This document shows, one piece after another, positions 1,963 to 48,564 of a DNA stretch of 64,000 bases (position 1 is the first letter of the stretch; every line of letters begins with the position of its first letter). The position numbers were made by a program, and so were the translations under genes. The notes beneath the pieces were generated by a model. The model saw nothing but the letters and a program-made list of their open reading frames with translations, was not told where the DNA came from and did no database searches. Source of the stretch: Minisyncoccota bacterium (lineage in GTDB: Bacteria; Patescibacteriota; Minisyncoccia; Phycocordibacterales; UBA9973); contig JBAZSZ010000001.1 of the NCBI GenBank assembly GCA_041662205.1, positions 295,978 through 359,977 on the forward strand, given 5' to 3'.

Positions 1963-3342
1963 ATGTCATTAAAATTTTACAACACTCTAACACGAGAAAA
2001 AGAAATTTTTACTCCACTTGATCCACATGAAGTTCGTATGTACACTTGTGGTCCGACAGTTTATAACTATACTCACATAGGCAACTTGCGCGCTTTTGTC
2101 TTTGCTGATATTTTACGCCGTACTTTGCAATATTATGACTTTGAAGTAAAACAAATAATGAACATCACTGACATCGGTCATCTTTCCAGTGATGCGGATT
2201 CAGGCGAGGATAAAATGACCAAAGGGCTCTTGCGTGAAGGAAAAGAATTAACCTTAAAAAATATGCGTGCCTTAGCAGAATTTTATACTGACACTTTCAA
2301 GCAAGATTTAAAAATACTTAATATTAAAATGCCAAACGGCATGTATTTTGCAAGTGATTACATAAAAGAGGATATTGATCTAGTAAAAAAATTAGAAGAA
2401 AAAGGATATGCTTATCGCACCACGGATGGCGTGTATTTTGATATTTCAAAAATGCCAGACTACGGGGCACTCTGGGGTGGTAAAAGAGATTGGAATAAAG
2501 AAGGCGCTCGTTTAATTGAAAATTCTGAAAAAAGAAACCCTGAGGATTTTGCTCTTTGGAAATTTAACAACACAATCGGTTTCGAATCCCCTTTTGGTAA
2601 AGGTTTCCCAGGTTGGCATATCGAATGCTCAGCAATGGGATTAAAATTTCTAGGAGAGCAATTTGATATTCATACTGGTGGGATTGATTTAATTCCTACT
2701 CATCACACCAACGAAATAGCTCAATCTGAATGCGCTACTAGTAAAAAACCATTCGTCAAATTTTGGATGCACAATGAATTCGTTGATACTAGTGGAGAAA
2801 AGATGTCTAAATCATCTGGAAATTTCCTCAGAACCCAAAACTTATTGGAAAAAAATATTAATCCCCTTGCTTACCGTTTTTGGCTCCTAATGGCTAATTA
2901 TCGCACAAAGGTCAACTTTAACTGGGAAGCGCTAGAAGCATCAGAAACAGCCTTAAAACGCTTATACGGCCTATACACAAGCCTGGGGGCTGATATAGGA
3001 AACATTCACAAAGAATATCAAAATAAGTTTAAAGAATTTATAGAAAATGACTTAGACACACCTAGAGCACTATCATTATTGTGGGACGTTTTCAAGGATA
3101 AAAATATGTCCGATAGCGACAAAAAAGCAACTATTCTTGATTTCGATAAAGTGTTGGGACTTGGCTTCGAAAACTTAAAACAAGATATAATTCCAGAGGA
3201 AATTTTGAAACTAGCTAATAAACGCGAAGAAGCTCGCCAAAATAAAGATTTCCAAAAATCTGATGAACTAAGAAAAGAAGTGAATTCTCTGGGTTATGAA
3301 ATAAAGGACACTTCGGAAGGACAAAAGATTTCTAAAATTTAA
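1963..3342 (+). CDS. cysS: Cysteine--tRNA ligase
   Basis: class I aaRS motifs HIGN and KMSKS, CGPTVYNYTHIGNLR N-terminus, 459 aa. Confidence 0.95.
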   Translation: MSLKFYNTLTREKEIFTPLDPHEVRMYTCGPTVYNYTHIGNLRAFVFADILRRTLQYYDFEVKQIMNITDIGHLSSDADSGEDKMTKGLLREGKELTLKNMRALAEFYTDTFKQDLKILNIKMPNGMYFASDYIKEDIDLVKKLEEKGYAYRTTDGVYFDISKMPDYGALWGGKRDWNKEGARLIENSEKRNPEDFALWKFNNTIGFESPFGKGFPGWHIECSAMGLKFLGEQFDIHTGGIDLIPTHHTNEIAQSECATSKKPFVKFWMHNEFVDTSGEKMSKSSGNFLRTQNLLEKNINPLAYRFWLLMANYRTKVNFNWEALEASETALKRLYGLYTSLGADIGNIHKEYQNKFKEFIENDLDTPRALSLLWDVFKDKNMSDSDKKATILDFDKVLGLGFENLKQDIIPEEILKLANKREEARQNKDFQKSDELRKEVNSLGYEIKDTSEGQKISKI

Positions 3343-3910
3343 AAATCTTTTTGCGGTAAATACAAAAAACAACTGCTAAATTTATTATTATAAAATAGAT
3401 ATTGAAAGAATAAATAGAAAAAATCCAATTTTTAATAATCAATAAACCCAACATACTATTTAAAGCAGCTATCAAATATACAGTACTCGCTTCAGTCTCT
3501 GGAAATTTCCAAGATTTTATTAGCGTCGGTGTTGCCGCTAAGCCATCACTTAATATTGCAAAAAAAATAGAGATTCCTAAATTATGAGTAATCATATAAA
3601 GTATCAAGGATGTAATGGCAAGTGCTCCACAATATAAATCAAAAGCATTTATTTTCCAATAACCGTTTTTAACTAAAATTGCTGTAATAATAATTACTAA
3701 AGAAAAAAAGGCGTCCATAAATATCGGCAAACTTACAAGCCCCGCACCTGCTTTATATTGAAAAAATACTCCAATAAGCGGAGCCAAGACCCAAATAAAC
3801 CAAGAAACTAAATTAGGCTTTGCCCGCCCACTTATTATGCTTTTGATATAAGAAAAATGACCCAAAAAACTTAGAAGAATAACGATATAAATAATATTCT
3901 GAGAAATCAT
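3332..3910 (-). CDS. Multi-pass membrane protein of unknown function, immediately downstream of and coupled to dnaJ
   Basis: 192 aa, 5-6 hydrophobic helices; start 2 nt after dnaJ stop. Confidence 0.45.
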   Translation of the reverse strand: MISQNIIYIVILLSFLGHFSYIKSIISGRAKPNLVSWFIWVLAPLIGVFFQYKAGAGLVSLPIFMDAFFSLVIIITAILVKNGYWKINAFDLYCGALAITSLILYMITHNLGISIFFAILSDGLAATPTLIKSWKFPETEASTVYLIAALNSMLGLLIIKNWIFSIYSFNIYFIIINLAVVFCIYRKKIFKF

Positions 3911-3911
3911 T

Positions 3912-5012
3912 TTAGATCCCCTCTTTTTTGAGTTCTTCTATGAGGGTACGAGAAGAGCGGGAAAGTTTTGACGGAAGTTTGATGTTGAGTTTGATTAACA
4001 GATCCCCTCTTTTATTTTTTCCTGCAGGCACTCCTTTGCCACGAACACGAAGAATTTCATTAATAGAAACTCCCTCTGGAATCGTCACTTCAATTTCTCC
4101 GTCTAAAGTTTGAATGGGATATTTCACTCCCAATAAAGCGTCAGAAAGCTTCAAATTTAGATTCATTACCAAGTCATTGCCTTCACGCTTAAACACTGGG
4201 TGCGGGGCAACATTTATTTTTATATAAAGATCTCCTGTTGTTCCTTTAGAAACTGCCTCACCATAACCCGTCATGCGGATCATCTCACCATCACGTATGC
4301 CTGCTGGAATCACAATAGAGACCTCTTCTTCACGGCGAAGGACTCCTTTACCTTTGCATTTTTCACAAATTTCTTTTGGTACTTCACCCGCACCCAGACA
4401 AACTTCACAAAGTTTTGTACTAGCAATATTTCCAAAAATTGTTCTTTTTGATTCACGAATTTTTCCTTGACCATTGCAATGCTTACAGGTTTCCATTTTA
4501 GTCCCGACTTTTGCACCAGAGCCTCCACATGTCTGACAAGTGGAAGTTTTAGTAATTAAAACTTTTCTATTTACGCCAAAAATGGAATCTGCAAAAGAAA
4601 TTTGAATCTCAGTAGAAATATCTCGGCCTCGGCGCACCTCTTGCCTTCCTCCACCCATTCCACCTCCAAAGAAATCACTAAAAATATCATTCAGGTCAAA
4701 TTCTGCAGAACCATTTTGAAAACCTCCAAAACCTTGAGAGAAATCGAATCCTCCAAAACCTCCTTGCCTTGGGTCACCGTAGCCTCCTTGTTGTCCCATA
4801 TTTTCAAAACCTGATCCATATTGATCGTATTTTGAACGTTTGGCGTCATCAGAAAGCACTTGATAAGCTTCATTTGCTTGCTTGAATTTTGTTTCATTAC
4901 CACCCTTTTTATCGGGATGATATTTTTGCGCCAACTTATAAAAAGCCTTCTTAATTTCATCTTTGGAGGCAGTTTTTTCAACACCTAAAATGTTATAATA
5001 GTCTTTATTCAT
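3912..5012 (-). CDS. dnaJ: Chaperone DnaJ (J-domain, G/F-rich linker, 4x CxxCxGxG zinc-finger, C-terminal domain)
   Basis: [12 protein letters not shown]-domain; repeated CxxCxGxG motifs. Confidence 0.95.
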
Positions 5013-5027
5013 AAGGTTATTTTGCTA

Positions 5028-6545
5028 TTATATCATAGGTTCAGCCTCTTGTGAAGTCTTAGTTTTTGTTTTTAGATTTTCTTCTACTGCCTCGCCGGAA
5101 CCTTCTGTATCGACGGATTCTCCACTTACCTTTTTTCCTTTATTTTTTCCTTCAATAATCGCTTTTTCTTCTGCACTTCGAATAATGGTGGCTTCTTCTT
5201 CAGCAATAAGTTTCGCTGCATCACCTTTTGGTATTGAATATTTTCTGCGAGAAGCTGCTATGATCTCTTCTCTATAAGATGGATGAGTAGGTGGTAACAC
5301 CCGTAGAGTCTCCGCAGAAAAAGGATCATAAGATTCTCCATCAATGGTCATTTTGATATAAAATTCTGTAACTGCTAGATTGATCATATCTTTCACATCA
5401 AAGAGTGGAGCAAATTCCGGCTTCATTTTGACGGCATCCTCACCACCAATACGAAAAGTGATAACACTCCCGACATTACCCAGGACTGCTTGATGAACTT
5501 TTGGTAAAATCTGTCCGACATACTGATGCGCGATAGTTAAATTAAGCCCGTATTTACGAGCCTCAGATAAAATATTTTCAAAAGTTTGGGTAACGACGTT
5601 TTGAAACTCATCAACGTATAAATAAAAATCTTTACGTTCTCTTTCTGGTATAGCCGCACGTTCCATACCCGCTTGTTTTATTTTTGTTAAAAACATCGAA
5701 CCGAGAAAAGAAGAATTCTCCTCACCTAGTCGGCCTTTAGAAAGATTGATAAAGATTATTTTTTCTTGATTCATTAATTCACTAATATCAATTTTATTTT
5801 GTCTTTGGCCGAAAATATTTCGAAGCAATGGATCAGAAAGAAATTGTCCGAGTTTGTTTACAAGCGGGATAATGGCATCCGTATCAAATTTTTCAGACCA
5901 ATCAGCGAATTCAATAGCGAAGAATCTTTTGACCATGTCATCTGTAATATATTCCACCACTTTCTGTCTGTAATTTCTATCCGTCAACATTGAAATCATC
6001 CCACGCATGGTTGCATGAGGGTAATCCAAAAGTGCTAAACAAGTAAAACGAAAAACGTGTTCCAGACGAGGAGTCCAATTCGCTCCGAACTGTTTTTGAA
6101 AAACTTCAATCAACCCTTGAGTCAATTGAAATTTAAACATTGGATCGACATTTGCGAGCGGATTGAAAGATGCGGGAAATTCAGTATCTGGCGGATCTAT
6201 AATACAGACATCTTCAATACGTTCTTTTGGCACATAGTCTAACATTGCGTCTATTAATTCACCGTGTGGATCGATAATGCAAAGCCCATGTCCATACGAA
6301 ATGTCCTGCCGAAGCATTAGTTCCATAAGTTTTGATTTGCCAACTCCAGACTTTCCAACTATATAAAGATGCCTACGACGATCTACTCGTTTAATACCAA
6401 AAACGAATTTTTTCTCTTCTAATGAAGCGACGTAATTAGTTCGCCCGATAAAAGAAACATCATCAGGTTTTACTTTTCCAAAAACAGGTAGCTCTGGTGG
6501 TGGTGGTCCGTATTTTATTATTTGCACTCGATTCGGCTTGGACAT
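5028..6545 (-). CDS. TM-less TraD/VirD4/TrwB-family (type IV coupling protein-like) P-loop ATPase, paralog 1
   Basis: RRRHLYIVGKSGVGKS Walker A preceded by Arg cluster; IIDPHGEL; FNPL; Walker B DFYLYVDEFQN; TraG-D_C-like block LTIAHQYVGQI..GNVGSVITFRIGGEDA; no TM helices; start 15 nt downstream of stop... (stop 15 nt upstream of dnaJ start). Confidence 0.7.
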   Translation of the reverse strand: MSKPNRVQIIKYGPPPPELPVFGKVKPDDVSFIGRTNYVASLEEKKFVFGIKRVDRRRHLYIVGKSGVGKSKLMELMLRQDISYGHGLCIIDPHGELIDAMLDYVPKERIEDVCIIDPPDTEFPASFNPLANVDPMFKFQLTQGLIEVFQKQFGANWTPRLEHVFRFTCLALLDYPHATMRGMISMLTDRNYRQKVVEYITDDMVKRFFAIEFADWSEKFDTDAIIPLVNKLGQFLSDPLLRNIFGQRQNKIDISELMNQEKIIFINLSKGRLGEENSSFLGSMFLTKIKQAGMERAAIPERERKDFYLYVDEFQNVVTQTFENILSEARKYGLNLTIAHQYVGQILPKVHQAVLGNVGSVITFRIGGEDAVKMKPEFAPLFDVKDMINLAVTEFYIKMTIDGESYDPFSAETLRVLPPTHPSYREEIIAASRRKYSIPKGDAAKLIAEEEATIIRSAEEKAIIEGKNKGKKVSGESVDTEGSGEAVEENLKTKTKTSQEAEPMI

Positions 6546-6583
6546 ATATTGATTATTTTAACATAAAATTACCTCACCCCCTA

Positions 6584-6608
6584 CCCCTCTCCTCATAAAG
6601 GAGAGGGG
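6584..6608. repeat. GC-rich hairpin CCCCTCTCC-N7-GGAGAGGGG immediately after stop of Cys-rich protein A, 38 nt upstream of ATPase-1 start
   Basis: 9-bp perfect inverted repeat in AT-rich context, seen directly. Confidence 0.6.
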
Positions 6609-8285
6609 TTAATATACCTCTTGCTGATAACACTTCTCGCAGTAGACAATCTCCGGCCTTTCTGGAGCAAAATTAGTGATAATTTTTTTCTGACATTTAG
6701 CACAATTACGATCCCAGAATTTATATGGACCTCGACGAATTACCCGATCTTGATGCCTGCAATAAAAACATTTTCTTGAAATTGGAATATTTATTTTTCG
6801 GTAAAATAAAAGTTCTTGATCTATAACCTTATAATTTCTTTTACAAGAAATACATTTTAAAATTTCACTCGTTATAGAATCCTCCACATCTTTTATGTGG
6901 TCAGGAATATCTTCTGTTTGTAATGTTTCTTTACCTTCTGTCTTTTGAATATCAACTTCCCATCTATAACCTTGCGCGAGAGCTTCTTCTTTTGAAAGGG
7001 GGAAATTTTCTTGAGCCATAGTTTCATTGTAGGCAAAAGGAGCAAGCTCATAGGATATCATTAATCCATATAAATCTAGATCAGTTAATTCTTTTATTAT
7101 TTTTTCCCTTAATCTTTCATACTCTTCTTTAGAATATTGCTTATTTAAAATAAAATATTGTCCATTTTTCAATCCATCACAACCAATACAGTTTTTGCAA
7201 TTCCTATTATAAAATCCATATAAAACATTACTGGAATTCTCTACTGCATAAGAACCAATAATATTATTCCCATACCCAGAAGCTACTACTTCGAGCAACT
7301 GTTCAGAGTTTATCCCATGACCAATTGTACCGATAGAATCTTTTATATGCTTTGACGAGTGAGTATGATGACAGTCTTCCCCATTGTTTATCTCAAAAGA
7401 TTTTTGAACATTTTTACACGAAAAAAGATAATCTCCCGTAGAATTTACAGTTTTTATATTATTATTTTCTCGCATTGGAAAATTTAAAATAAATTTCTCA
7501 AATTCTTTTTTAAATTCCTCTAATTTCTTATAAGATCCTAAAATATCACTCACTTTTTTAGTGTACTCATCTGCCCCCATCGGCTTATTTAAGAAATAGT
7601 GAGATTTATTATTCAAATTAACACAACCAAAACAATTTAAAACATTTCTACAATTAAAGACAAAACAAGAATCTACTGAACTGTTTATATTTTGACCATA
7701 AAGAATCCCAGAAGAATGTTGAATATTTATAGATTCGTAGCATCTTTCTACTTTTATTCCAAAATACAAATCACTAGAATCCTTGACATCTATTGCTCCT
7801 CTAGAATAAAGCACTTCCTCGGCTGGTCCAGTGTTGAAAACAAGATAACAATTCTTGCATCCACCAGCCATATTGATATACTCGCTATTTATGTTTGGAC
7901 CTGGACCAATAGAAATATAGGTAGTAATTTTAGGAACTTTTAATAAGAGCTCTTTATAGTGTTCTAAAAAAGATCGATTCTCATCAAAATCCATAGCATA
8001 ATCTCTCGCTTCCCATTTTTCAGAATAAAAACATTTTTCACAATAAATAACATAAGGGGATTTTGGATTATATATCGAAATAACATTTTTTTCACAGAGA
8101 GCGCATTTTCGTCCTGAATATAAACTCATCTCATTTCTAAATAAAGCGCGCATTATAAAACGACAATCTGGGCATATCTTTGGATTTGGTACCTTCATCT
8201 TTTCATAAAATCCAAGCTCGTCAGAGGAAAATGAAAAATCTTGTTTGCATTTTTTACAGTTTTTTATTTCTTTTATATTTTCCAT
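6609..8285 (-). CDS. Cys-rich multi-zinc-ribbon protein, paralog A (unknown function)
   Basis: 558 aa, about 40 Cys; N-terminal CxxC..FYxKxxVPxPxxCPxCR..RNExxLY..C module repeated near C-terminus; internal CxxCxxCxGC..NLxNK..NKQYSKEEY repeats; tail PERPEIVYCEKCYQQEVY; no signal peptide. Confidence 0.8.
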   Translation of the reverse strand: MENIKEIKNCKKCKQDFSFSSDELGFYEKMKVPNPKICPDCRFIMRALFRNEMSLYSGRKCALCEKNVISIYNPKSPYVIYCEKCFYSEKWEARDYAMDFDENRSFLEHYKELLLKVPKITTYISIGPGPNINSEYINMAGGCKNCYLVFNTGPAEEVLYSRGAIDVKDSSDLYFGIKVERCYESINIQHSSGILYGQNINSSVDSCFVFNCRNVLNCFGCVNLNNKSHYFLNKPMGADEYTKKVSDILGSYKKLEEFKKEFEKFILNFPMRENNNIKTVNSTGDYLFSCKNVQKSFEINNGEDCHHTHSSKHIKDSIGTIGHGINSEQLLEVVASGYGNNIIGSYAVENSSNVLYGFYNRNCKNCIGCDGLKNGQYFILNKQYSKEEYERLREKIIKELTDLDLYGLMISYELAPFAYNETMAQENFPLSKEEALAQGYRWEVDIQKTEGKETLQTEDIPDHIKDVEDSITSEILKCISCKRNYKVIDQELLFYRKINIPISRKCFYCRHQDRVIRRGPYKFWDRNCAKCQKKIITNFAPERPEIVYCEKCYQQEVY

Positions 8286-8313
8286 ATTAAAATACTTTAG
8301 TTAAGTAAAGTAA

Positions 8314-10065
8314 CTAGTATACTTCTTGCTGGTAACACTTCTCACAATACACTATCTCTGGTCGGTCAGGTGCATACGAAGTTTCAAATTCAACTTCACA
8401 TTTTTCATTGCCGTGAAAATGGTTCTCTTTGTCACACATGCAAGATCTATGCCAAATTTTCATAGGATTACGCATTTTTAGTCTATTTTCGTGACGACAC
8501 AAAAAACACAATCTGGGTAAAGGTACTCCGAGTTTTCGATATAAATTTAATTCATCTATAGTTATTTTATATGCTCCTCTGCAACAATTACTGGATTTTT
8601 CTTTATTATCACATCCAATAATTTCCTTCGTGATGGAATCTGTTACATCATCCAAACTAGACGGAAGGTCTTTAGCTTCTATTGTTGTTTGATACTCATT
8701 TACTTTTTTTTCACGCCATCGATAACCCATTTTGATTGCCTGCTCTTTGGAAAGAGGAAAATAATCTTGCGCCTGAGTTTCATTATAACAAAAAGTAGAA
8801 AGTTCACTAGGAAAAAATTCTCCATATTTATAGACAATTCCCCTCTTGTCCACATAAGGCACTTCATTCATCTGTTGTTCAATTTTTGGAATTAATTTTT
8901 CATATTCTTCTTTGGAATATTGTTTATTTAGAATACAATATTTCTTGTTTCGCACACCAATACAACCAAATAAATTTGAGCTTCCATGACAATTAAAAGA
9001 ATATTCAATATCATTTGAGCCATAAATCACACTACCAAAAAGATTACGAGAACCCCCTATTCCCGTATCAAAAACTTCATAAAGCATTTCGCCTTCCCCT
9101 ACTCCAGGACCAGAATCATAAGCATCTTTAAGACTTTTTACTGCCCAGTGTGAAAATTTTGCATCCTCTATGTCTCCAGTTGCGTCAAAACAAATTTTGC
9201 AATTTTTAGTACCTTCTAAATTATCGCCCGTTGAATCCACAGTCTTTATTTTAACAGCAAACCGATGAAGTGATTTTAGGCATATTTCTCTAAACTTATT
9301 TTTAAGTTCTTGGATAGTTCTATAATCCTTAAAACTATATTCTGCTATTTTTTTGTGATATTCTTCTCTAGAAAATTGCTCATTCCACATACAATATGAT
9401 TTATTGCGTAAATTAGTACAACCAAAACAATCTGTACATCCTACGCAATCATAAAGAAAATATGAATCTACACAACTTTTGCAATTTAGAGAATATAATA
9501 AATGATAGCTATCCGAGCAAAGCACGTCTTCATAACAAAGTTCAGAACGATTAACAACGTATAAATCTGCAGAATCTTTTGTTCCTGTAATTCTGTTTGC
9601 ATATAAAGTTCTTTCTATTCTCCAAGAACCGGAACACATATAGCTATCCTTACTAGCTTCCGCAACATTACAATAATCACTGTTTGTATCTTTTATATTT
9701 GAAAGAGATTGCAGAGGAATATTGTCTCTCAAATTTTTCCATTGTTCAAAAAAAGGATTTAAAAAATCATATTCTTTACCATACGAAAGTGGATCCCAGC
9801 CATCACCCCACCAAGCATCAGAACAATATACTGTAAGTTTTTCTTCTGGAGGTAAAAAAGAAATAAGCATTTCATTGTGTCCTGGCGCATCGCATTTTCT
9901 TTTAAATAAAGACATCTCATTTCGCCAAGTTAGACGCCGAATAGTTCTACACTCCGGACAAAAAGTCGGTGGAAGAACTTTTATCTTTTCATAAAAGTTA
10001 AAATCTTCCGGCTCTATAATAAAATCTTGTTTGCAGTTCTGACAGATCTTAGTTTCTGAATTCAT
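8314..10065 (-). CDS. Cys-rich multi-zinc-ribbon protein, paralog B
   Basis: 583 aa; same architecture as A; closest to paralog C; start 1 nt after ATPase-2 stop. Confidence 0.8.
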   Translation of the reverse strand: MNSETKICQNCKQDFIIEPEDFNFYEKIKVLPPTFCPECRTIRRLTWRNEMSLFKRKCDAPGHNEMLISFLPPEEKLTVYCSDAWWGDGWDPLSYGKEYDFLNPFFEQWKNLRDNIPLQSLSNIKDTNSDYCNVAEASKDSYMCSGSWRIERTLYANRITGTKDSADLYVVNRSELCYEDVLCSDSYHLLYSLNCKSCVDSYFLYDCVGCTDCFGCTNLRNKSYCMWNEQFSREEYHKKIAEYSFKDYRTIQELKNKFREICLKSLHRFAVKIKTVDSTGDNLEGTKNCKICFDATGDIEDAKFSHWAVKSLKDAYDSGPGVGEGEMLYEVFDTGIGGSRNLFGSVIYGSNDIEYSFNCHGSSNLFGCIGVRNKKYCILNKQYSKEEYEKLIPKIEQQMNEVPYVDKRGIVYKYGEFFPSELSTFCYNETQAQDYFPLSKEQAIKMGYRWREKKVNEYQTTIEAKDLPSSLDDVTDSITKEIIGCDNKEKSSNCCRGAYKITIDELNLYRKLGVPLPRLCFLCRHENRLKMRNPMKIWHRSCMCDKENHFHGNEKCEVEFETSYAPDRPEIVYCEKCYQQEVY

Positions 10066-10066
10066 A

Positions 10067-12028: not shown

Positions 12029-12061
12029 ATACTATACATTTTACAACAAAATTACCAAAAC

Positions 12062-12086
12062 AAAAAGCCCTATAAGGGGCTTTTTG
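12062..12086. terminator. Hairpin AGCCC-TATAAG-GGGCT flanked by A-run and T-run (bidirectional intrinsic terminator) between secreted-protein gene and ATPase-2
   Basis: seen in sequence. Confidence 0.5.
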
Positions 12087-12107
12087 TTTTGGTAAAAGAA
12101 AATTATA

Positions 12108-13322
12108 TTATAACCAAGTAAAATTAGTAGCACTATTATTTAATATCTGCACGGTTAATTTTCCAATCGGATTGGTTCCAAAAGTATTATTAAATTTAAC
12201 TTCCAATGTTGCTACTGTTCCAACTACTGTTATAATTTGAGCATCAATTCCTGCTCCTGCTCCTACACCAGCTGTTGCTTCACCGCTGTCAGTACAAGAT
12301 CCACTCACTGTTCCAGCATTATTTATAAACGCACATACAAAAATTCCACCATGGGATCCAGCGTTTACACCATCAGTTACAGTATAAGTAAATGACATAT
12401 GAACGATAGCTCCAGTATTGGCAGTAGGTAAATTTATTGAATAAATTTGTGTATTTACATTATCCGGCATAGAATAAACTTTATTATGAATCATAAATTT
12501 ATGAATTAGCGCTTGGTCTGCAGTACCACTAGAAGTTCCCATAACTGTCGTAGCTAGGTTTATGTCTGCTGGTTGCGCATTGCCAGTAGATAACCCAGCA
12601 TGCAAATGCAAAGCTCCTCCTGTCTTATTTGTTGATAAAACAGTTGCTCCACCTGCTTGAAGAGTCAAGTTATTTCCAGTAGTATCTGCGATGGTATTTC
12701 TTTCCATCCAAATTGTTCTATCAGCTGTGCCCCCAAGAGAAAATAAATTAGTAGGAGATGTTGTTCCAAAACCAACATTACCATCTTTGAAATAAATACC
12801 GGCAGTTGAAGAAGGACCAATCCAAGATTCAGCCAAAGTAGTTAGAGGGTTAATGAGAGAAAAAGAATTGGTAGCATCAAGACGAGTAATATTCGTGGTA
12901 TCAGATAGATCAGTAGAAGCAATACTAATGTCAGCTGATCCATCAAAAGATACTCCAGCAATATTGCGAGCATTTGTTAGTGTGGCAGCGCTACCTGTTA
13001 TACTTCCGACAATTGGATTAGTAACTTCAAAATCTGTAAACCATCCTTTGGTAAGTCTAGACCCAGTTGTTCCGATAGAACCAGTAGATGTAATATCTTT
13101 AGTACCCATATCCAAGGCACCACCCAACACAACTTTTCCTGTAGTTAAATTATTTCCTATTGTAATGTTTGAAGTTGCACTACTGTTTAATGATAAAGAA
13201 CCATTATTTGTAAGACCTGCAGCATCAAATATAAGATTAGCTTCAGCGGGTAAAACTCCGATTCCAATAACAAAAATCAAAATAACAAAACTTAAATTAA
13301 AATATTCAAATTTATTTTTCAT
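12108..13322 (-). CDS. Secreted G/S/T/N-rich low-complexity protein (possible surface/adhesin-like beta-rich protein)
   Basis: N-terminal signal peptide (FVILIFVIGIGVLPAEA); 404 aa dominated by T, G, S, N, A; no recognisable catalytic motif. Confidence 0.6.
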   Translation of the reverse strand: MKNKFEYFNLSFVILIFVIGIGVLPAEANLIFDAAGLTNNGSLSLNSSATSNITIGNNLTTGKVVLGGALDMGTKDITSTGSIGTTGSRLTKGWFTDFEVTNPIVGSITGSAATLTNARNIAGVSFDGSADISIASTDLSDTTNITRLDATNSFSLINPLTTLAESWIGPSSTAGIYFKDGNVGFGTTSPTNLFSLGGTADRTIWMERNTIADTTGNNLTLQAGGATVLSTNKTGGALHLHAGLSTGNAQPADINLATTVMGTSSGTADQALIHKFMIHNKVYSMPDNVNTQIYSINLPTANTGAIVHMSFTYTVTDGVNAGSHGGIFVCAFINNAGTVSGSCTDSGEATAGVGAGAGIDAQIITVVGTVATLEVKFNNTFGTNPIGKLTVQILNNSATNFTWL

Positions 13323-13409
13323 TTTTTTATTTTAATTAATAATAGATAACAAAAATTATACCATATTTTAATAAAAAAATACTAATTATGGTTTTATTTC
13401 CATCATATT

Positions 13410-13431
13410 AAAAGCCCCTTAAGGGGCTTTT
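13410..13431 (-). terminator. Intrinsic terminator after dnaK (AAAAGCCCCTTAAGGGGCTTTT)
   Basis: perfect 7-bp GC stem with flanking A/T runs, ends 9 nt after dnaK stop codon. Confidence 0.7.
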
Positions 13432-13439
13432 AATATGAT

Positions 13440-15356
13440 TTATGCTTTTGATTCTCCGTCTTCAGAAGGTTTTTCTTTAAACTCTGCATCATGGACTTCA
13501 GGTGGTTGTTCTTCGGGAGTCGAAGGTCCTGTACTTGCTGAAGCATCAGTTCCCCCAGCTTTCGCCATCGCCTCCCCTATCTTAGACATTTCGGTAGAGA
13601 GCTCTTCGGTAGCTTTTTTGATCGCTTCTCCATCGGTGCCATCTTTTACCCCTCTCAAAGCAGTTATTTTTGCGTTTACTTCATCTTTTAATTCTACAGG
13701 TATTTTTTCTTCATTCTCTTTAAGAGCTTTTTCGGCAGTATAGATGATCATCTCTGCGGTATTTTTTACTTCTGCATTTTCTTTTTTCTTTTTATCTTCC
13801 TCTGCGTGAAGCTCTGCATCAGCTTGCATTTTTTTAATGTCTTCTTCTTTGAGCCCAGAACTTGCTTCAATTTTAATGGATTGGGTTTTTCCTGAAGCTT
13901 TGTCTTTAGCAGAAACATTTAGAATTCCATTCACATCTACATCAAAAGCAACTTCAATTTGAGGCATTCCGCGAGGTGCTGGTGGCACTCCATCTAAAAT
14001 AAATCTGCCGAGAGATTTATTATCGGACGCCATCGGACGCTCTCCCTGCACAATGTGTATTTCGACAGAAGTCTGATTATCGGCAGCCGTAGAAAATGTT
14101 TGAGATTTACTAGAAGGAATAGTGGTATTTCTTTCAATCAATTTTGTAGCCACTCCTCCCAAAGTCTCAATACCTAATGAAAGCGGTATCACATCGAGAA
14201 GTAATACATCCCGCACATCACCTTGCAACACACCAGCCTGAACGGCTGCACCGAGCGCCACAACTTCATCAGGGTTAATGGACATATTTGGAGCCTTACC
14301 GAAAAGATCTTGCACAGCAGATACAATAGCTGGCATTCTCGTCTGACCACCTACCATGATAATTTCATTTATTTCATTTATTTTGAATGGAGATGCGTCC
14401 AAAGCTCTCTTGGTAATCTTAATAGACAGATCAATATATTCTTTCGCTAGAGATTCCAACATTGCTCGAGACATTTTAAGTAAAAGATGTTTTGGTCCAG
14501 AGCTGTCTGAAGTTATGAATGGTATGTTGATCTCTGTTTCAGTAGTTGTAGAAAGTTCATGCTTAGCTTTTTCAGCAGCTTCTTTTAATCTTTGGTGCGC
14601 TAGAGGATCTTTTATAACATCAATGCCAGACTCTTTTTTATACTCTTCAGCAATCCAAGAAATAATTTTTCTATCAATGTCACCTCCACCCATATGACTG
14701 TCTCCATCGGTAGATTTTACTTCTATCACATCGTCACCTATTTCCAATACAGACACATCAAAGGTTCCTCCACCGAAATCGTATACAACAATCTTTTCAT
14801 TTTTCTTTTTATTAAAACCATAAGCAAGTGCTGCAGCTGTCGGCTCATTGATGATGCGTTTTACGTCAAGGCCAGCAATTGCTCCCGCGTCTTTGGTCGC
14901 TTTTCTTTGCGCATCATTAAAATATGCTGGCACGGTTATTATTGCTTCAGTAATCTTTTCTCCGAGCTTCGCCTCAACATCAGCCTTAATTTTTTGTAAA
15001 ACCATTGCAGAAATTTCTTCCGGTCGATAAAATTTATCTGACATTTTTATTTTTACTCCACCTCCGTCTCCTGTTTCAATTTTAAATGAAGCAGTCTCAC
15101 GATCTTTTTGCACTTCTGGATCATCAAACCTATGCCCCATATAACGCTTTATTTCAGCAATAGTATTTTCTGGATTTGTAACCGCTTGTCTTTTTGCCAG
15201 AAGGCCGACAATACGATCTCCATTTTTTGCAGTCGCCACGACAGAAGGCGTCGTGCGATTACCTTCCACATTCTCCACAATTTTTGGTGCACCACCCTCA
15301 ATGATAGCGACTGCTGAATTTGTTGTACCTAAATCTATACCTATTATTTTACTCAT
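13440..15356 (-). CDS. dnaK: Chaperone DnaK (Hsp70)
   Basis: [10 protein letters not shown].. N-terminus, [11 protein letters not shown]..., 638 aa full length. Confidence 0.97.
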
Positions 15357-15443
15357 ATATTTTATATGTTATTTATAATTTAACTTATATTTCGCGACCA
15401 CTAAAAACTTGTATAAATAGAGTATATATGATAGCGTATTAGT

Positions 15444-15950
15444 ATGTCAAGTTATTCCAAAAAAATACTTAAAAAGTTAACTGAAAGACCTGCAATTTCG
15501 ACAAAAGATCTAAAAGAAAAAGATGTAAGAACAACTTATGCCATTTCTCGTGCCTTAAAAAATCTAATAGAAAGCAAATGTGCTGAAATTCATGAATCAG
15601 GAAGACAAGATTATGTAAAAATTACTCCGCTTGGAAAAAATAAATTAAATACCTTGCTCTTAGAAAATGACGAAGCATTAGTCCCGCAAAATTGGGATGG
15701 ATTTTGGCGAATTATTTTACTAGACCTGCCAGAAAACAGAAAGGCTGAACGTGAATCTCTACGTTATCTTCTTAAAAAAGCTGGCTTCGTTTGTTTAAAA
15801 AATTCTGCGTGGATTTCCCCTTTCCCTTTTGAACATTTATTTACAAATATAAAGCGTGACCTAGACCTCACCACAGAAATGATGATCATCGTCACAGAAA
15901 ATATTGACGAAGAAAGTAAAAAAGTTTTATTTGAAACTTTCGGAAAATAA
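15444..15950 (+). CDS. PaaX-family-like transcriptional regulator (N-terminal wHTH + C-terminal Cas2-fold PaaX_C-like domain), divergent from dnaK
   Basis: NWDGFWRIILLDLPENRKAERESLRYLLKKAGFVCLKNSAWISP matches PaaX WDGKW..R..LR..L...GFG.L...VW.SP block. Confidence 0.6.
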   Translation: MSSYSKKILKKLTERPAISTKDLKEKDVRTTYAISRALKNLIESKCAEIHESGRQDYVKITPLGKNKLNTLLLENDEALVPQNWDGFWRIILLDLPENRKAERESLRYLLKKAGFVCLKNSAWISPFPFEHLFTNIKRDLDLTTEMMIIVTENIDEESKKVLFETFGK

Positions 15951-16013
15951 AAAATCTTTTAATAAACTATCCACAGGCTTACCTGCCTACGGCAGTGCCA
16001 AAGGCGACCAGGG

Positions 16014-17756
16014 CTAGTAAATCTCCTGTTGATAGCATTTTTCACAATAAACTATCTCTGGCCTCTCAGGCGCATAACTCGTTTCAAATTCTATTTCACA
16101 TTTACTTTCGTGAGTATGATTTTCTTTTTCACACATACAAGTTCTTTTCCATAATTTCCATGCTGGTAATTGATAAAACCTTTCATAATATCTACAATTG
16201 GGACACAAAATCGGGAGCGGTATTTTATTTTTCTTATAAAAATCAAGTTCAAAATTTGCTAAACGAAAAGCGATATTGCATTGATGAATACAACTTCCCT
16301 TGTGTGCACATTCTAATACTTCTCCTAAAATTTTATCATCTACTTCATCTATTGTATCGGGAATATTTTCTACAGGTATGGTAATCTGGAAATTCTTTAC
16401 ATCTTGCTCTAACCATCGATAACCGTTTTTTTCTACTTCTGTTTTAGTCATTGGATTAATTTCTTGGGCAAAAGTTTCGTTGTAAGCAAAAGGACAGACT
16501 TCTATAGGAAAAAATTCTCCATATTTATAAACTCTACCCGCCTTGTCCACAAAAGGTATATTTTCCATTTGTTTTATAATTTCTAAGCGAAGTTTATCAA
16601 ATTCATCTTTTGAACAAATTTTATTGAAAATTACATTTTCTTTATTTCTTATTCCAATACAACCAAATAAATTTGAGCTATTAATACAAGAATCAGTATA
16701 CTCCACATTGCTGACAGAACTAAAAGCGGAATGAGAAAATTTCACATTATAATCATTTAGAGATCCAGTAACATATTCATACATCAATTCTGACTTCATT
16801 GCCTGAGAAGAATCCATGGAATCCTTAAAAGACTCCAATACTCTATAACAGTATTTCAAATTTTCCGCATTGTAAACATCAAAACAATTTTGACAATTTT
16901 TTACATTTGAAAGATTATTTCCAGTAGCGTTTACTGAACGTACAATGTTAGTAAAACGATAAATAGATTTTTCTTTTATTTCTTTAAATTCCTTAAGAAA
17001 AACTTCCAGAGAATCCCTGCTTGATAAATTTAATCTTTCTTTTTCTTTTAAATATTCTTCTTTTGAATACTGCTTATTGCGAATATAAAATTCTTTATTA
17101 CGTAAATTGTAAGAAAGTAAGCAATTGCTACAGTTTACACAATCAACTAAAAAATAAGAATCTAAACAATTTTTTGAAAGTAATAAATACTGACAATTGT
17201 AATTTTTCTCACTTTGAATATTCTCATATAAATTTTGCCCTTCGTTAATATTTAAGCAATCAATAATGTCCGTAGACTTATCTACATTCTTTGAATAAAA
17301 AACATTTTCTGAACCCTTAACGACCGAAAATGATAAATAAACATTCTTAGACTCACCCGCATAATTTGTATAATCAGAGTTAATTACATTTCTATGCCAC
17401 AAAGCTAATCGAGGCACGACATTCATTAATTTATTAAATTGCTCAAAAAATGGTCTAGAAAAATCATAATCTCTACTAAAAGAAGTGGCTTCCCAACCAT
17501 CTCCAAACCAACATTCTCGACAATATACAGGGAAAGGCACGGATTCATGGTACATTGAAATAATGTTTTTCTTACACAAATCACATTTACGTTTATATAA
17601 AGTTCTTTCATTACGCCAAGCCATTCTCCTTTGCAACCTACACCAAGGACAAAAAGTAGGTGCGGGAACTTGTATCTTTTTGTAATAATTAAAATCTTCT
17701 GGCTCTATTTTAAAGTCTTTTTTGCAATTCTGGCAATTTTTAGTTTCACTTTTCAT
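16014..17756 (-). CDS. Cys-rich multi-zinc-ribbon protein, paralog C
   Basis: 580 aa; N-terminus CQNCKKDFKIEPEDFNYYKKIQVPAPTFCPWCR..WRNERTLYKRKC; tail FETSYAPERPEIVYCEKCYQQEIY; start 1 nt after paralog D stop. Confidence 0.8.
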   Translation of the reverse strand: MKSETKNCQNCKKDFKIEPEDFNYYKKIQVPAPTFCPWCRLQRRMAWRNERTLYKRKCDLCKKNIISMYHESVPFPVYCRECWFGDGWEATSFSRDYDFSRPFFEQFNKLMNVVPRLALWHRNVINSDYTNYAGESKNVYLSFSVVKGSENVFYSKNVDKSTDIIDCLNINEGQNLYENIQSEKNYNCQYLLLSKNCLDSYFLVDCVNCSNCLLSYNLRNKEFYIRNKQYSKEEYLKEKERLNLSSRDSLEVFLKEFKEIKEKSIYRFTNIVRSVNATGNNLSNVKNCQNCFDVYNAENLKYCYRVLESFKDSMDSSQAMKSELMYEYVTGSLNDYNVKFSHSAFSSVSNVEYTDSCINSSNLFGCIGIRNKENVIFNKICSKDEFDKLRLEIIKQMENIPFVDKAGRVYKYGEFFPIEVCPFAYNETFAQEINPMTKTEVEKNGYRWLEQDVKNFQITIPVENIPDTIDEVDDKILGEVLECAHKGSCIHQCNIAFRLANFELDFYKKNKIPLPILCPNCRYYERFYQLPAWKLWKRTCMCEKENHTHESKCEIEFETSYAPERPEIVYCEKCYQQEIY

Positions 17757-17757
17757 A

Positions 17758-19434
17758 TCAAGCTATATTTTGTTTATAACATTCTTCGCAAGCAATTTTC
17801 TGGTATCCCCATTCCGGCAAATAATATGCATCGACATCCTTTTTACAATAAAAACATTTATATTGATGTGCTTGCAAGATAGTCAAATATTTCAAACTAT
17901 TTTTTATTCGCACATCAAAATGATAACGTGGAAGTGGGATATTATTTTCTTTGTAAAAAGAAAGTTCATTTTGGGCAATATTGAAACGCCAGCCCGTTTC
18001 AGGGCAAATCAGTGCCTGAGTGATGATAGTATTCGGAACGTCTTTGATATCGTCAGGCAACTCCGCTGTAGGCATGCCGTCTACATGACTCTCTGTGACA
18101 TCCTCCCAATAACCGCCAAATTTTAAAATATCTTCTTTTTTAGTTTCTGGAAAATACAGAAAAGCAGTAGAAAAATTAAAAGGTCCCAAGCTCATGGAAT
18201 AAGGTAAAAATTTCCCATATTCTCCACTCTTTTTCATATCAGAAATTATCTTATTTTTTAAAGTTTCATATTCTTCTTTACTATACTGTTTGTTTAAAAT
18301 ACAATATTTCTTTTTCCCCAAACCCACACAACCAAAACAATATTCACATTCAAGACATAGATCTAAATATTCAGAATATCTTGAGGACGACCAACTGGAA
18401 TATTTGAGAGCATAACCACTTGGTTGGCAGGAACTACAATTGCCTGATACTTCTAAATACTGACAACCATTTATGTCGACGCAAGACTCTAATCCTGTGC
18501 CTCTGATACAGTTAGAGCAATCCTTAGAATCAGAGATTGTGAAACAATTTTGGCAATTTTTACAATCAATTAAGTAATCGCCAATGGAATTGAAAACTTT
18601 TAAATTGAAGTTCGGTCTATGCGCCACCTCATTTTTAATTATTTCTTTAAAATGTTTTTTAAGTTTTTGAATAGAATCATAAGAACCAAGATTAAATAAT
18701 TGGATTTTTTTATCATATTCCTCCTTAGAATACTGCACATTTTCTATACAATAGGATTTATTGCGAAGATTCCAACACATAAAACAATTTTGACAGTTTC
18801 GGCAATCATATAAAAAACTTGATTGTATGCAATCGCGGGAATGTTTCGAATAAAAAAGTTTGTAGGAATGATGACATTCAGAAGAATCAAAACATTTTTC
18901 ACTATTATAACAAACAACCACATCAATAGAATTTTTTACCCCTATATTCCTATATGAATAAAATAAATTTTCGCAATCTACCATTGAACGAGAAAGATAA
19001 CTATCCTTACAATTCCAAACATCATCACACCAATCACAACCTGTACTTTTAATACCATCTTGATGCGGACGAGGAACTTTCTCTTGAAGATTTTGTAATT
19101 GCTCAAAAAATAATTTTTTTTCGTCATAGTCTGCCCCATAATCCATCGCGTCCCACTTGTCGCTATACCACTCATTTAAAGTGTAAATCGGATATCTAGT
19201 CTTCTCTGGTAAAACGGTAATTAAACTTTCTCCAGAGAGATCTGATTTACCCCTGCGAAATTTTCCAAACATCCAAAAAGATAAATGTAATTTTACTCGA
19301 CAAAAAAAACAAAGTGTCGGTAATTCAATATCAACTTTTTTATATAAAGATAATTCTTCTTCTGTAATTAAGAAGTCTCGTTTGCAGTGTTCACAAACTC
19401 TAGTTTGCAGGTCCTTTGTATTCATATACATCAA
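17758..19434 (-). CDS. Cys-rich multi-zinc-ribbon protein, paralog D (most divergent)
   Basis: 558 aa; CEHCKRDF..LSLYKKVDIELPTLCFFCR; CRNCQNCFMCWNLRNKSYC..YSKEEY repeats; start overlaps grpE 3' end by about 25-35 nt. Confidence 0.75.
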   Translation of the reverse strand: MMYMNTKDLQTRVCEHCKRDFLITEEELSLYKKVDIELPTLCFFCRVKLHLSFWMFGKFRRGKSDLSGESLITVLPEKTRYPIYTLNEWYSDKWDAMDYGADYDEKKLFFEQLQNLQEKVPRPHQDGIKSTGCDWCDDVWNCKDSYLSRSMVDCENLFYSYRNIGVKNSIDVVVCYNSEKCFDSSECHHSYKLFYSKHSRDCIQSSFLYDCRNCQNCFMCWNLRNKSYCIENVQYSKEEYDKKIQLFNLGSYDSIQKLKKHFKEIIKNEVAHRPNFNLKVFNSIGDYLIDCKNCQNCFTISDSKDCSNCIRGTGLESCVDINGCQYLEVSGNCSSCQPSGYALKYSSWSSSRYSEYLDLCLECEYCFGCVGLGKKKYCILNKQYSKEEYETLKNKIISDMKKSGEYGKFLPYSMSLGPFNFSTAFLYFPETKKEDILKFGGYWEDVTESHVDGMPTAELPDDIKDVPNTIITQALICPETGWRFNIAQNELSFYKENNIPLPRYHFDVRIKNSLKYLTILQAHQYKCFYCKKDVDAYYLPEWGYQKIACEECYKQNIA

Positions 19435-19987
19435 CCCTCGCTGCGCGAATTACGCGCTCGCCTAGTTTGTAGCCTTTTTGAATTACATTTGCAACTTTGT
19501 GTTCTAACTCTTTTTTGTCTGTTTCTACCACATCAATAGATTGATGAATATTTGGATCAAAACTCTCTCCTACCTCGCCCATGGATTTAACCCCATATTC
19601 CTCAAAAATTGTATTCATCTGCGCGTAAATATATTCCACACCCTTTCGCCAATTTTCATCCACTTTCTCCCAAGCTTCCTTGTTCGCAAAAGCCATATTA
19701 AAACTATCAATCACAGAAAGGAAGCGAGTCAAAATCCTCTCTCGCATTGCCTCTGAAAAAAGTGCTTTTCTATCTTCTTCTTGTTTACGGTAATTCACAA
19801 AGTCCGCTCGCTCTTTTTGCCAACCAGTCAAATATTCTTCCTTTTCGGCCTTGCACGCCTTCAGATCGGCTCTAAATTTCTTTAAAGTTTTCTTTAAATC
19901 CTCTTCTCCATCTTCATTGAATTCAAACTCTAAAACTTCAGAAGTGTCTTCTTTTGGTTCTTCTTTTTTTTCTTCTTCGTCTGACAT
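19400..19987 (-). CDS. grpE: Nucleotide exchange factor GrpE
   Basis: acidic N-terminus, coiled coil, C-terminal VIQKGYKLGERVIRAARV GrpE signature. Confidence 0.9.
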   Translation of the reverse strand: MSDEEEKKEEPKEDTSEVLEFEFNEDGEEDLKKTLKKFRADLKACKAEKEEYLTGWQKERADFVNYRKQEEDRKALFSEAMRERILTRFLSVIDSFNMAFANKEAWEKVDENWRKGVEYIYAQMNTIFEEYGVKSMGEVGESFDPNIHQSIDVVETDKKELEHKVANVIQKGYKLGERVIRAARVDVYEYKGPAN

Positions 19988-20006
19988 ATATTGTTTATCT
20001 TAACAT

Positions 20007-20035
20007 AAAAATACCCCTATTTTCAAGGGGTATTT
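20007..20035 (-). terminator. Intrinsic terminator after rpsI (AAAATACCCCTATTTTCAAGGGGTATTTT)
   Basis: 8-bp stem ACCCCTAT/TCAAGGGGT with flanking T/A runs, 6 nt after rpsI stop. Confidence 0.65.
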
Positions 20036-46737: not shown

Positions 46738-47067
46738 TTATTGACTCAAATTCACTGTTCCATTTTCTGGATCTATTTGACTTTCATTTATTCCCAAAGT
46801 ATTTAATACAATACTGAGAATAGTCCAAACTCCCATCATGATAGTGATACCAATAATTCCCCAAATCATATGATTTCTGCCAGCTGTCTTTTTATCTGCT
46901 TCTTCTTGATTGGAAAGAAATTGAAATACACCATAAAGAAAATACACAATAGCTAAAGCAAAGAGGAGCTCAATAAGTGGATTGATAATCATATTATCAA
47001 TCTTGCCGATAAAATCATTCAAGCCAGAACTAGCTCCATAAGCTATCTTTGTAGAAAAAAAATCCAT
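46738..47067 (-). CDS. VirB2/TrbC-like two-TM pilin-like protein, paralog 5
   Basis: two hydrophobic helices separated by charged loop NQEEADKKTAGRNHMIWGIIG. Confidence 0.55.
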   Translation of the reverse strand: MDFFSTKIAYGASSGLNDFIGKIDNMIINPLIELLFALAIVYFLYGVFQFLSNQEEADKKTAGRNHMIWGIIGITIMMGVWTILSIVLNTLGINESQIDPENGTVNLSQ

Positions 47068-47075
47068 ATTTCAAT

Positions 47076-47459
47076 TTATTGTATTGTAGGTAAAACAATA
47101 CTATCAGCATTAGTACCAGTAAGCCCAAAAGTATTAGTCAATATTCTTACGAGTCCCCATAAAGCTACGATAACTGCAAAACCAATAATACCATAAATAA
47201 TTCTGTCTCTACCTTTTGATTTTGCTTCTTCATCATCATTGATAACATAGCTGACGACTCCCCAGACAAAAAATACAACTGCCAAGGCAATCAAAACTGG
47301 AACGACAGCATTAAGGAGCTGACTAATTTTACACATTATTCCTCCTATGTCACTAATCTGTCCTGCATTACAAGGACCAGTACCCACAGTCGCTGCTAAC
47401 GCAGCCACTGGAGCTAAACCCAAAACAAAACCTGACAATGCAATTAATTTCTTTTTCAT
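47076..47459 (-). CDS. VirB2/TrbC-like pilin-like protein, paralog 4 (with signal peptide)
   Basis: signal peptide ..PVAALAA; VVFFVWGVVSYVINDDEEAKSKGRDRIIYGIIGFAVIVALWGLV. Confidence 0.6.
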   Translation of the reverse strand: MKKKLIALSGFVLGLAPVAALAATVGTGPCNAGQISDIGGIMCKISQLLNAVVPVLIALAVVFFVWGVVSYVINDDEEAKSKGRDRIIYGIIGFAVIVALWGLVRILTNTFGLTGTNADSIVLPTIQ

Positions 47460-48160: not shown

Positions 48161-48180
48161 AATTTATAATTCGTAATTAA

Positions 48181-48558: not shown

Positions 48559-48564
48559 ATTATA

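Follow-up and report, generated by a model that had tools for sequence, protein, structure and literature searches.

Two coupling-protein-like ATPases and variable Cys-rich paralogues in the Hsp70 region of a Paceibacteria clade

In Hsp70 loci of the Bacillus type, an hrcA-grpE-dnaK-dnaJ operon is combined with a CIRCE operator. Our study concerns the Hsp70 region of a Minisyncoccota bacterium, contained in a 64-kb stretch of chromosome (64,000 nt; GenBank assembly GCA_041662205.1, contig JBAZSZ010000001.1, positions 295,978 to 359,977) that we refer to as the window; coordinates are given as positions in the window and genes lie on the minus strand unless stated otherwise. Here, grpE, dnaK and dnaJ are accompanied by two genes for ATPases resembling the coupling proteins (T4CPs) of type IV secretion systems (T4SSs), by four genes for Cys-rich paralogues (CysA to CysD) and by a divergent gene for a PaaX_M-like regulator. 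A preliminary description of the locus, made from its sequence, had proposed that a module of ATPase and zinc-ribbon genes has invaded the chaperone genes and forms a dedicated, tightly coupled system with them.

Homologues of T4CPs have been surveyed in the candidate phyla radiation (CPR), where 5,713 VirD4-like proteins were counted in 2,918 genomes (about two per genome), only 148 of them near virB4, and it was suggested that they may have been 'exapted for other functions' (bioRxiv 10.1101/2025.01.22.634366). They are rarely found near T4SS genes. The occurrence of T4CP homologues away from virB4 in the CPR was thus already known; what appears to be new is their embedding between dnaK and dnaJ, an arrangement of which we found no description in the literature on DnaK, HrcA and coupling proteins of Patescibacteria/CPR.

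Gene order of the Hsp70 region across the clade

As judged from synteny, the gene order of this region is the norm for Hsp70 regions in a large clade of ultra-small Paceibacteria, passed on by vertical inheritance, and does not result from an insertion. Our species scan, with one genome per GTDB species, yielded 80 loci from Nomurabacteria-like Paceibacteria whose ATPase-2 is 67-89% identical to that of the window, and these loci were annotated by BLASTP against the window proteins. The skeleton that recurs in them is rpoA-L17-L13-S9-grpE-(Cys)n-PaaX(-)-dnaK-variable slot-ATPase-2-(Cys)n-ATPase-1-dnaJ-(Cys)n-192-aa membrane protein-cysS(-), where (Cys)n stands for a variable number of Cys-rich paralogues and (-) for a gene on the opposite strand. 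dnaK lies upstream of ATPase-2 in 59 of the 63 loci with enough flanking sequence, and independent gene calls with precomputed Pfam domains agree with this layout. The preliminary description had left it to a comparison with relatives whether the arrangement keeps its place beside the chaperone genes; across the 80 species representatives, it does.

The Cys genes vary in number from locus to locus. The slot between ATPase-2 and ATPase-1 holds none in 18 loci, one in 19, two in 18, three in five and four in one; the corresponding figures for the slot between grpE and the PaaX_M-like gene are 12, 10, 18, five and two, and between dnaJ and the membrane protein gene there are none in 43 loci, one in five and two in one. 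Seven loci from six genomes (L005/L015, which are the same contig, L008, L012, L020, L022 and L070) have no Cys gene at all and show a minimal form in which dnaK is followed, as a separate block, by ATPase-2-ATPase-1-dnaJ-membrane protein. Since these loci retain the ATPase pair, the ATPases belong to the conserved core, and the Cys genes are a separate, accessory component of variable copy number. The idea of a chaperone locus invaded by a module therefore had to be abandoned: the ATPase pair belongs to the ancestral skeleton.

Median identities to the window proteins across these loci are 87% for both ATPase-1 (minimum 81%, 61 loci) and RpoA, 84% for DnaK, 82% for GrpE and L13, 80% for DnaJ and 75% for S9. 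The value for ATPase-2 is lower (74%) because of its variable C-terminal linker, and CysA (66%), the PaaX_M-like regulator (63%), CysD (56%), the membrane protein (55%), CysC (47%) and CysB (45%) follow. Measured in this way, the ATPases are under housekeeping-level constraint, unlike plasmid coupling proteins, which usually evolve fast.

Strain-specific mobile DNA lodged in a canonical grpE-dnaK-dnaJ operon would account for the lower GC content of the Cys genes (0.30-0.32 vs 0.36-0.38), for the strain-specific gene between dnaK and ATPase-2 (see below) and for the presence of T4CP-type ATPases, which are typical of conjugative elements. However, equally low GC content is found elsewhere in the window, the arrangement recurs in nearly all testable species-level genomes, and the ATPases are conserved like DnaK and RpoA. 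The integrase genes and flanking att-like repeats by which the preliminary description would have recognised mobile DNA are lacking: we found no integrase, relaxase or flanking direct or att-like repeats at the locus, and the repeats between positions 3000 and 20500 all correspond to paralogous Cys coding sequence, plus one promoter cassette. A mobile element or island is thus hardly credible, and is effectively refuted for the ATPases and the Cys genes.

The ORF map and family scans recovered every gene named in the preliminary description in the order and on the strand given there. Within the Hsp70 set, dnaK (13440-15356; TIGR02350, 895.5 bits vs a cut-off of 822.55) and dnaJ (3912-5012; TIGR02349, 383.8 vs 377.2) pass equivalog cut-offs, the latter encoding a type I protein with a J domain, CXXCXGXG zinc fingers and a C-terminal domain. 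The product of grpE (19400-19987) is recognised at the family level only: it matches GrpE models and no others (best 91.6 bits), all below the equivalog cut-offs, and its orthologues in relatives contain PF01025. The 192-aa membrane protein (3332-3910), presumed to be polytopic from hydrophobic stretches read in its sequence, matches no Pfam family even at E<=5, and its gene is convergent with cysS. The slot between dnaK and ATPase-2 differs in content among relatives; in the window it is occupied, between two strong terminator hairpins, by a strain-specific gene (12108-13322) for a 404-aa G/S/T-rich protein with a hydrophobic N-terminus, which has no family match in Pfam (including E<=5) or NCBIfam and lacks homologues throughout the 80 related loci. 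In one relative (GCA_001785985.1; L006/L034), an insertion consisting of a Y1 transposase gene (a weak Y1_Tnp match) and a small ORF separates the PaaX_M-like gene from the control region of dnaK; the palindrome described below is kept beside dnaK.

The ATPase pair and the Cys-rich proteins

ATPase-1 (5028-6545) and ATPase-2 (10067-12028) are 46% identical to each other; they are paralogous soluble proteins whose Pfam matches place them on the T4CP (VirD4/TrwB/DotL) branch of the FtsK/HerA P-loop ATPases. ATPase-2 exceeds the Pfam cut-offs for TrwB_AAD_bind (40.6 vs 20.5), T4SS-DNA_transf (31.4 vs 20.1) and TraG-D_C (24.7 vs 22), and ATPase-1 those for TrwB_AAD_bind (35.6 vs 20.5) and T4SS-DNA_transf (29.4 vs 20.1), its TraG-D_C score (21.8 vs 22) being just below. 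DUF87 is above its gathering score in both proteins, and the Walker A (GKSGxGKS) and Walker B (YLYVDEFQ) motifs are intact in both. The earlier assignment to the T4CP family thus holds by Pfam thresholds. There was no equivalog-level T4CP match, the best NCBIfam scores being 49 vs 366 for SXT_TraD and 48.8 vs 250 for conju_CD1115, and in a sequence-profile search of the PDB only the Walker A region aligned with TrwB. AlphaFold modelled ATPase-2 poorly (predicted local distance difference test, pLDDT, 53.8), with helices inserted between the two Walker motifs.

ATPase-2 consists of a P-loop domain (residues 1-440), a zinc finger, a variable linker and an invariant C-terminal tail, EVPEDVLRKILE. 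The finger, a CxxC-x17-CxxC treble clef at residues 451-484 (nt 10577-10678; PF23477, 34.4 vs 27; TIGR04272, 36.9 vs 36), is absent from ATPase-1. ATPase-2 has more than 8,000 close homologues, and across 22 species hardly any variation is seen in its first 440 residues. The family as a whole comprises 23,036 clusters at 50% identity with E<=1e-3, of which 6,464 have E<=1e-30, and adjacent pairs of paralogues recur in distant lineages; by this distribution the ATPase family is ancient and CPR-wide, with adjacent pairs frequent. At five distant loci (L128-L130, L135 and L161), two long paralogues of about 830 and 860-1,060 aa lie a few kb apart. In four relatives (P0271, P0284, P0289 and P0304) the ATPase domain is preceded by some 380 aa that form an uncharacterised N-terminal domain, and a transmembrane helix is predicted at the very start of three of the four (P0284, P0289 and P0304).

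Two other roles for the ATPases were considered and rejected. A part in anti-phage defence was set aside after PADLOC returned only generic ATPase-level matches (mad8, about 50 bits; HerA, at most 34 bits) and none for the Cys proteins. Substitution for a missing ClpB is ruled out by a full-length ClpB encoded in the window.

The four Cys-rich proteins are encoded at 17758-19434 (CysD, with ATG at 19425 as the likely start), 16014-17756 (CysC), 8314-10065 (CysB) and 6609-8285 (CysA); they are paralogues, with CysB, CysC and CysD 33-41% identical to CysA. CysA has a borderline zf_Tbcl match at its N-terminus (PF13451, 24.1 vs 24) and a weak zf_Tbcl_2 match at its C-terminus, the same type of finger as in ATPase-2. 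CysB, CysC and CysD have no Pfam match at E<=5, and their invariant Cys pairs still align: the family alignment shows such pairs at both ends and CxxCxxCxxC ladders inside. The zinc-finger modules expected of large metal-binding proteins, as these had been called, are thus present by Pfam match and invariant Cys, metal binding itself being predicted. The sequence-profile search of the PDB was uninformative for this family and no signal peptide was found in the Cys proteins. In the AlphaFold model (pLDDT 78.5; predicted template modelling score, pTM, 0.82), both ends are predicted with confidence, the N-domain as zinc finger and helices and the C-domain as a zinc ribbon; they enclose two beta-solenoid stretches of lower confidence, each closed by a conserved helix, in agreement with an internal 57-nt duplication that is seen twice per Cys gene.

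Homologues of CysB number more than 7,600 when clustered at 90% identity, and every one is annotated as 'hypothetical'. A CysD-type gene follows grpE in 27 of the 28 cases in which the upstream gene is known, and a CysA-type gene follows ATPase-2 in 23 of 27. Read from these positions, the Cys genes are old, position-specific paralogues, accessory to the ATPase/chaperone core. They can be numerous: one relative (L003) has six consecutive copies downstream of grpE in a span of 14 kb. Copies are also found outside the chaperone locus, as in L001 between TerC and RNR.

Predicted transcription units and the control region of dnaK

The genes of the locus are closely packed within several groups. 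The gaps are 1 nt between CysD and CysC, ATPase-2 and CysB, and dnaJ and the membrane protein gene, 28 nt between CysB and CysA, and 15 nt between ATPase-1 and dnaJ; CysD begins within the 3' end of grpE, and the two share 26-35 nt according to which start codon is taken. This confirms the spacings reported earlier for CysD/CysC, ATPase-2/CysB and ATPase-1/dnaJ and corrects two others, since the dnaJ/membrane protein gap had been given as 2 nt and the grpE/CysD junction as an overlap of stop and start; the overlap is not of this ATGA type. Across the related loci, ATPase-1 and dnaJ are separated by a median of 34 nt and by no less than 7 (60 loci), the grpE/CysD overlap has a median of 29 nt, and the membrane protein gene comes directly after dnaJ in 43 loci (median gap 4 nt) and after intervening Cys genes in six more.

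Between these groups lie hairpins and predicted promoters. Strong terminator-like hairpins follow dnaK (13402-13439) and the 404-aa gene (12052-12095), and a GC-rich hairpin on the minus strand separates CysA from ATPase-1 (6584-6608); all three had been noted before and are present. Two further terminator-like hairpins follow CysC (15971-15992) and S9 (20014-20029), the latter ahead of the grpE promoter. Reading of the junctions and a consensus scan predict extended -10 promoters (TGnTAnnnT) about 8-9 nt before the ATG of grpE (TGTTAAGAT, about 9 nt), ATPase-1 (TGTTAAAAT, minus strand, 6555-6563, 9 nt), the 404-aa gene (TGGTATAAT, minus strand) and ATPase-2. The TGnTAnnnT motif precedes the grpE ATG in 39 of 42 loci, and a 33-nt cassette ahead of grpE (19983-20015), which includes the extended -10 box, is 91% identical to one ahead of ATPase-1 (6541-6573). 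A promoter only 8-9 nt from the ATG suggests leaderless or near-leaderless mRNAs, and from the same short geometry, which we also saw at many genes of related loci, such mRNAs may be widespread in the clade.

From these elements we infer about six transcription units, [grpE-CysD-CysC], [PaaX_M-like], [dnaK], [404-aa gene], [ATPase-2-CysB-CysA] and [ATPase-1-dnaJ-membrane protein], with dnaK predicted to be monocistronic here, from its own promoter to its terminator. The tight coupling originally ascribed to the whole locus is thus retained within the three multigene units and lost between them, since hairpins and extended -10 promoters divide the locus. In related loci where no Cys gene intervenes, only 4-8 nt separate the ATPase-2 stop from the ATPase-1 start, which points to a predicted ancestral operon ATPase-2-ATPase-1-dnaJ-membrane protein, served by a promoter directly downstream of dnaK.

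The dnaK control region is of a different kind. A conserved sigma-70-like promoter, TTGACA-N18-TATACT (15450..15421, minus strand), matches the consensus at 11 of 12 positions and ties for the top score between positions 3000 and 20500, and a 35-bp imperfect palindrome (15415..15381, minus strand) lies directly downstream of it. Its consensus, TATACAAGTATTTCGTGGTCGCGAAATACTTGTTA, has 14-nt arms and a 2-nt centre and is conserved in 55 aligned loci. A position-weight scan found the palindrome to be unique in the window, and in L001-L086 (80 of them from the genome scan) all hits above 18 bits are immediately upstream of dnaK; on contigs that include the PaaX_M-like gene, they fall in the space between this gene and dnaK. 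An operator serving a wider regulon was rejected, since neither the window nor the 10 kb on either side of the 80 loci contains another site, with the stretches upstream of grpE, ATPase-2 and clpB included. In some relatives, the outer ends of the palindrome read TTAGCA...TGCTAA, reminiscent of the ends of CIRCE.

The PaaX_M-like protein (15444-15950, plus strand), a winged helix-turn-helix protein of 168 aa (PF20803, 70.3 bits vs a cut-off of 24), is encoded divergently from dnaK in all 58 loci covering that stretch, and has 1,825 homologues, the top 120 of which are at least 70% identical. CIRCE itself (TTAGCACTC-N9-GAGTGCTAA) has no match with three or fewer mismatches in the 64 kb, so that its reported absence extends to the whole window, and neither Pfam nor NCBIfam detected an HrcA domain among the 64 window ORFs scanned, a set that leaves out the ribosomal-protein/rpoA block and some other ORFs. 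The PaaX_M-like protein and the palindrome are therefore likely candidates for a dnaK repressor/operator pair in the role of HrcA and CIRCE. Alternatively, the palindrome may act at the RNA level, as a hairpin in the 5' untranslated region of dnaK.

The remainder of the window is ordinary core chromosome, with genes for ribosomal proteins and rpoA (assigned from similar orthologues with Pfam annotation in related loci), alaS, mnmA, typA, infB, clpB, gyrA, mur ligases, secA and tRNAs. The ClpB-type disaggregase is full-length (36164-38896, minus strand), with a TIGR03346 score of 1156 bits, just under 1232; its gene has no palindrome of the dnaK type and thus apparently lies outside the same regulon. 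About 35 kb from the ATPases is a group of five tandem genes for VirB2/TrbC-like T4SS pilins of 109, 127, 195, 125 and 135 aa (46738-48972, minus strand), one of which has two pilin domains.

Proposed roles and comparison with known systems

The explanation that we favour combines an inherited clade layout, a paired ATPase motor, accessory Cys proteins and a separately repressed dnaK, and taken as a whole we consider it somewhat more probable than not to be right. ATPase-1 and ATPase-2 would form a hetero-oligomeric ring motor acting at the membrane, possibly via the co-operonic 192-aa membrane protein, and would serve to couple or translocate a polymer: a substrate of a T4SS-like apparatus built with the VirB2-like pilins of the window, or some other polypeptide or DNA. 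DnaJ, co-expressed with the motor, could hand over unfolded substrates, or might share with it only a high constitutive expression. The Cys proteins, with the same CxxC-x17-CxxC finger as the C-terminus of ATPase-2, would be candidate clients or adaptors of the motor. dnaK would be regulated apart from these genes by the PaaX_M-like protein, bound to the palindrome just downstream of the -10 box and most likely acting as a repressor.

Several observations weigh against this explanation. The ATPases have no transmembrane segment, their N-termini being hydrophilic with Walker A starting at residue 42 (ATPase-2) or 64 (ATPase-1). The model of ATPase-2 is poor, at a pLDDT of 53.8, and HerA comes close to the T4CPs in score. 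Neither VirB4 nor a relaxase was found in the 10-kb flanks of the 80 genome loci or among the window ORFs that were scanned, and the t4cp homologue of Southlakia is reported to be non-essential (bioRxiv 10.1101/2025.01.22.634366). On the regulatory side, the window copy of the palindrome is degenerate, with only about 8 of 14 arm positions pairing, and a second PaaX_M protein (181 aa, 28% identical; 61526-62071, minus strand) makes the regulator type a small family in this genome. Two more points concern the link with the chaperones. In a distant set of 80 metagenome loci, fetched via distant soluble representatives and encoding an ATPase 47-72% identical to ATPase-2, dnaK, dnaJ or grpE was found within 10 kb in none, which means that the ATPase has no general need for DnaK/DnaJ in its vicinity. 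Finally, the synteny extends over the whole region in the clade, and the adjacency may be historical.

The distant loci also delimit the linkage. Two matches to 'dnaK' at 27% identity in that search are presumably other actin-fold (MreB/FtsA-type) proteins, and the neighbours of the ATPases, read by eye from translations, are unrelated and varying housekeeping genes (secF, pgk, mnmA, recJ-like, RNase H, murJ). The linkage to chaperone genes is thus specific to the Nomurabacteria-like clade, and a CPR-wide link is ruled out. The commonest upstream neighbour of the distant ATPases, in 27 of the 80 loci (L087-L166), encodes a protein with sigma70_r4 and HARE-HTH domains; the window contains a homologue of it, a 343-aa protein with sigma-70 region 4 and HARE-HTH (33077-34108, minus strand).

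These data also fit a neutral history, in which one rearrangement in the ancestor of the clade brought together genes that share strong constitutive promoters and have no functional link to Hsp70. The genes flanking the locus (ribosomal protein operon, cysS, AI-2E transporter, L21, recR, dnaB) are equally syntenic in the clade, so that little can be read about function from conservation by itself; dnaK is predicted to be transcribed on its own; and Cys genes also occur in unrelated contexts such as that between TerC and RNR. On the other hand, neutral synteny would not by itself explain the tight conserved spacing of ATPase-1, dnaJ and the membrane protein gene or the conserved grpE/CysD overlap, the repeated build-up of Cys genes in the same three slots, or the near-identical promoter cassette common to grpE and ATPase-1. 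We regard such a history as possible though on balance unlikely, the weight that we grant it being due mainly to the confinement of the linkage to a clade in which the whole neighbourhood is syntenic.

The preliminary description had envisaged instead that DnaK, DnaJ and GrpE fold, load or otherwise handle the T4CP-like ATPase and the Cys-rich metal proteins. The conserved adjacency and the coupling within sub-operons agree with this, multi-zinc beta-solenoid proteins are plausible as difficult folding clients, and DnaJ is itself a zinc-finger co-chaperone. Yet the locus is not one unit, the Cys-free loci keep both ATPases and chaperones, the linkage is absent outside the clade, and the presence of ClpB next to a normal DnaK/DnaJ/GrpE set points to general proteostasis. 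Of the proposed dedicated system there remain the adjacency and a partial coupling, weaker than claimed and without counterpart in the distant loci, and we find the model improbable. A bolder version, quite doubtful in our estimation, would have an exapted soluble ATPase pair join DnaJ (and DnaK/GrpE) and the membrane protein in a chaperone-coupled device for unfolding, loading or exporting the beta-solenoid proteins with their zinc-finger caps. Recognition would depend on the finger common to ATPase-2 and the Cys proteins and on the conserved C-terminal tails, and a PaaX_M repressor with its palindrome would replace HrcA and CIRCE. If this were true, coupling proteins and Hsp70 would here form a machine of a new type.

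The locus is of interest for the sharply defined hypotheses that it offers on functions deduced so far from genome comparison. ATPases conserved like DnaK and predicted to be co-operonic with dnaJ and a membrane protein gene provide a testable context for the role of VirD4-like ATPases. The PaaX_M protein and its palindrome are a candidate heat-shock regulator and operator where CIRCE is absent, and the Cys family, with four copies in the window and six in L003, takes up a sizeable share of these regions in very small genomes.

Compared with the Bacillus-type operon, the locus has in common the order of grpE, dnaK and dnaJ on one strand, an adjacent regulator gene and a long palindrome between the dnaK -10 box and the start codon. 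It differs in the lack of CIRCE, in a divergent regulator of the PaaX_M type, in the sequence and geometry of the palindrome, and in its division into separate units with six to ten extra genes. The regulator shares with PaaX, the repressor of phenylacetate catabolism, the Cas2-like PaaX_M domain and an N-terminal winged-helix region, but it is of half length (168 aa vs 279 model positions), has no PaaX_C domain, is not accompanied by paa genes and falls far short of the full PaaX architecture (TIGR02277, 27.9 vs 264.55).

The ATPases depart from T4CPs (VirD4/TrwB/TraD/DotL/Cag-beta) in having no N-terminal transmembrane anchor and no relaxase or VirB4 gene within the window or 10-kb flanks, in forming two tandem paralogues with housekeeping-level conservation, in the zinc finger of ATPase-2, and in NCBIfam T4CP equivalog scores of 44-49 bits against cut-offs of 250-647. 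They are probably the same proteins as the VirD4-like homologues described in the CPR, in a report that mentions no dnaK/dnaJ position, paralogue pairing, zinc finger or Cys-rich neighbours and in whose main text 'dnak' occurs 0 times (bioRxiv 10.1101/2025.01.22.634366). The Cys proteins resemble known beta-solenoid proteins (the ice-binding protein 3ult and left-handed beta-helix acyltransferases) at 3-13% identity, with a solenoid modelled at a pLDDT of about 60, and this resemblance is no evidence of a common function. Their terminal motif and that at the C-terminus of ATPase-2 are those of the small zinc-finger proteins of TIGR04272, PF23477 and PF13451, a CxxC-x17-CxxC domain that binds zinc in small proteins of Methanosarcina mazei (PMC12704099); here, in contrast, the fingers cap predicted beta-solenoid proteins of 560-580 aa and an ATPase.

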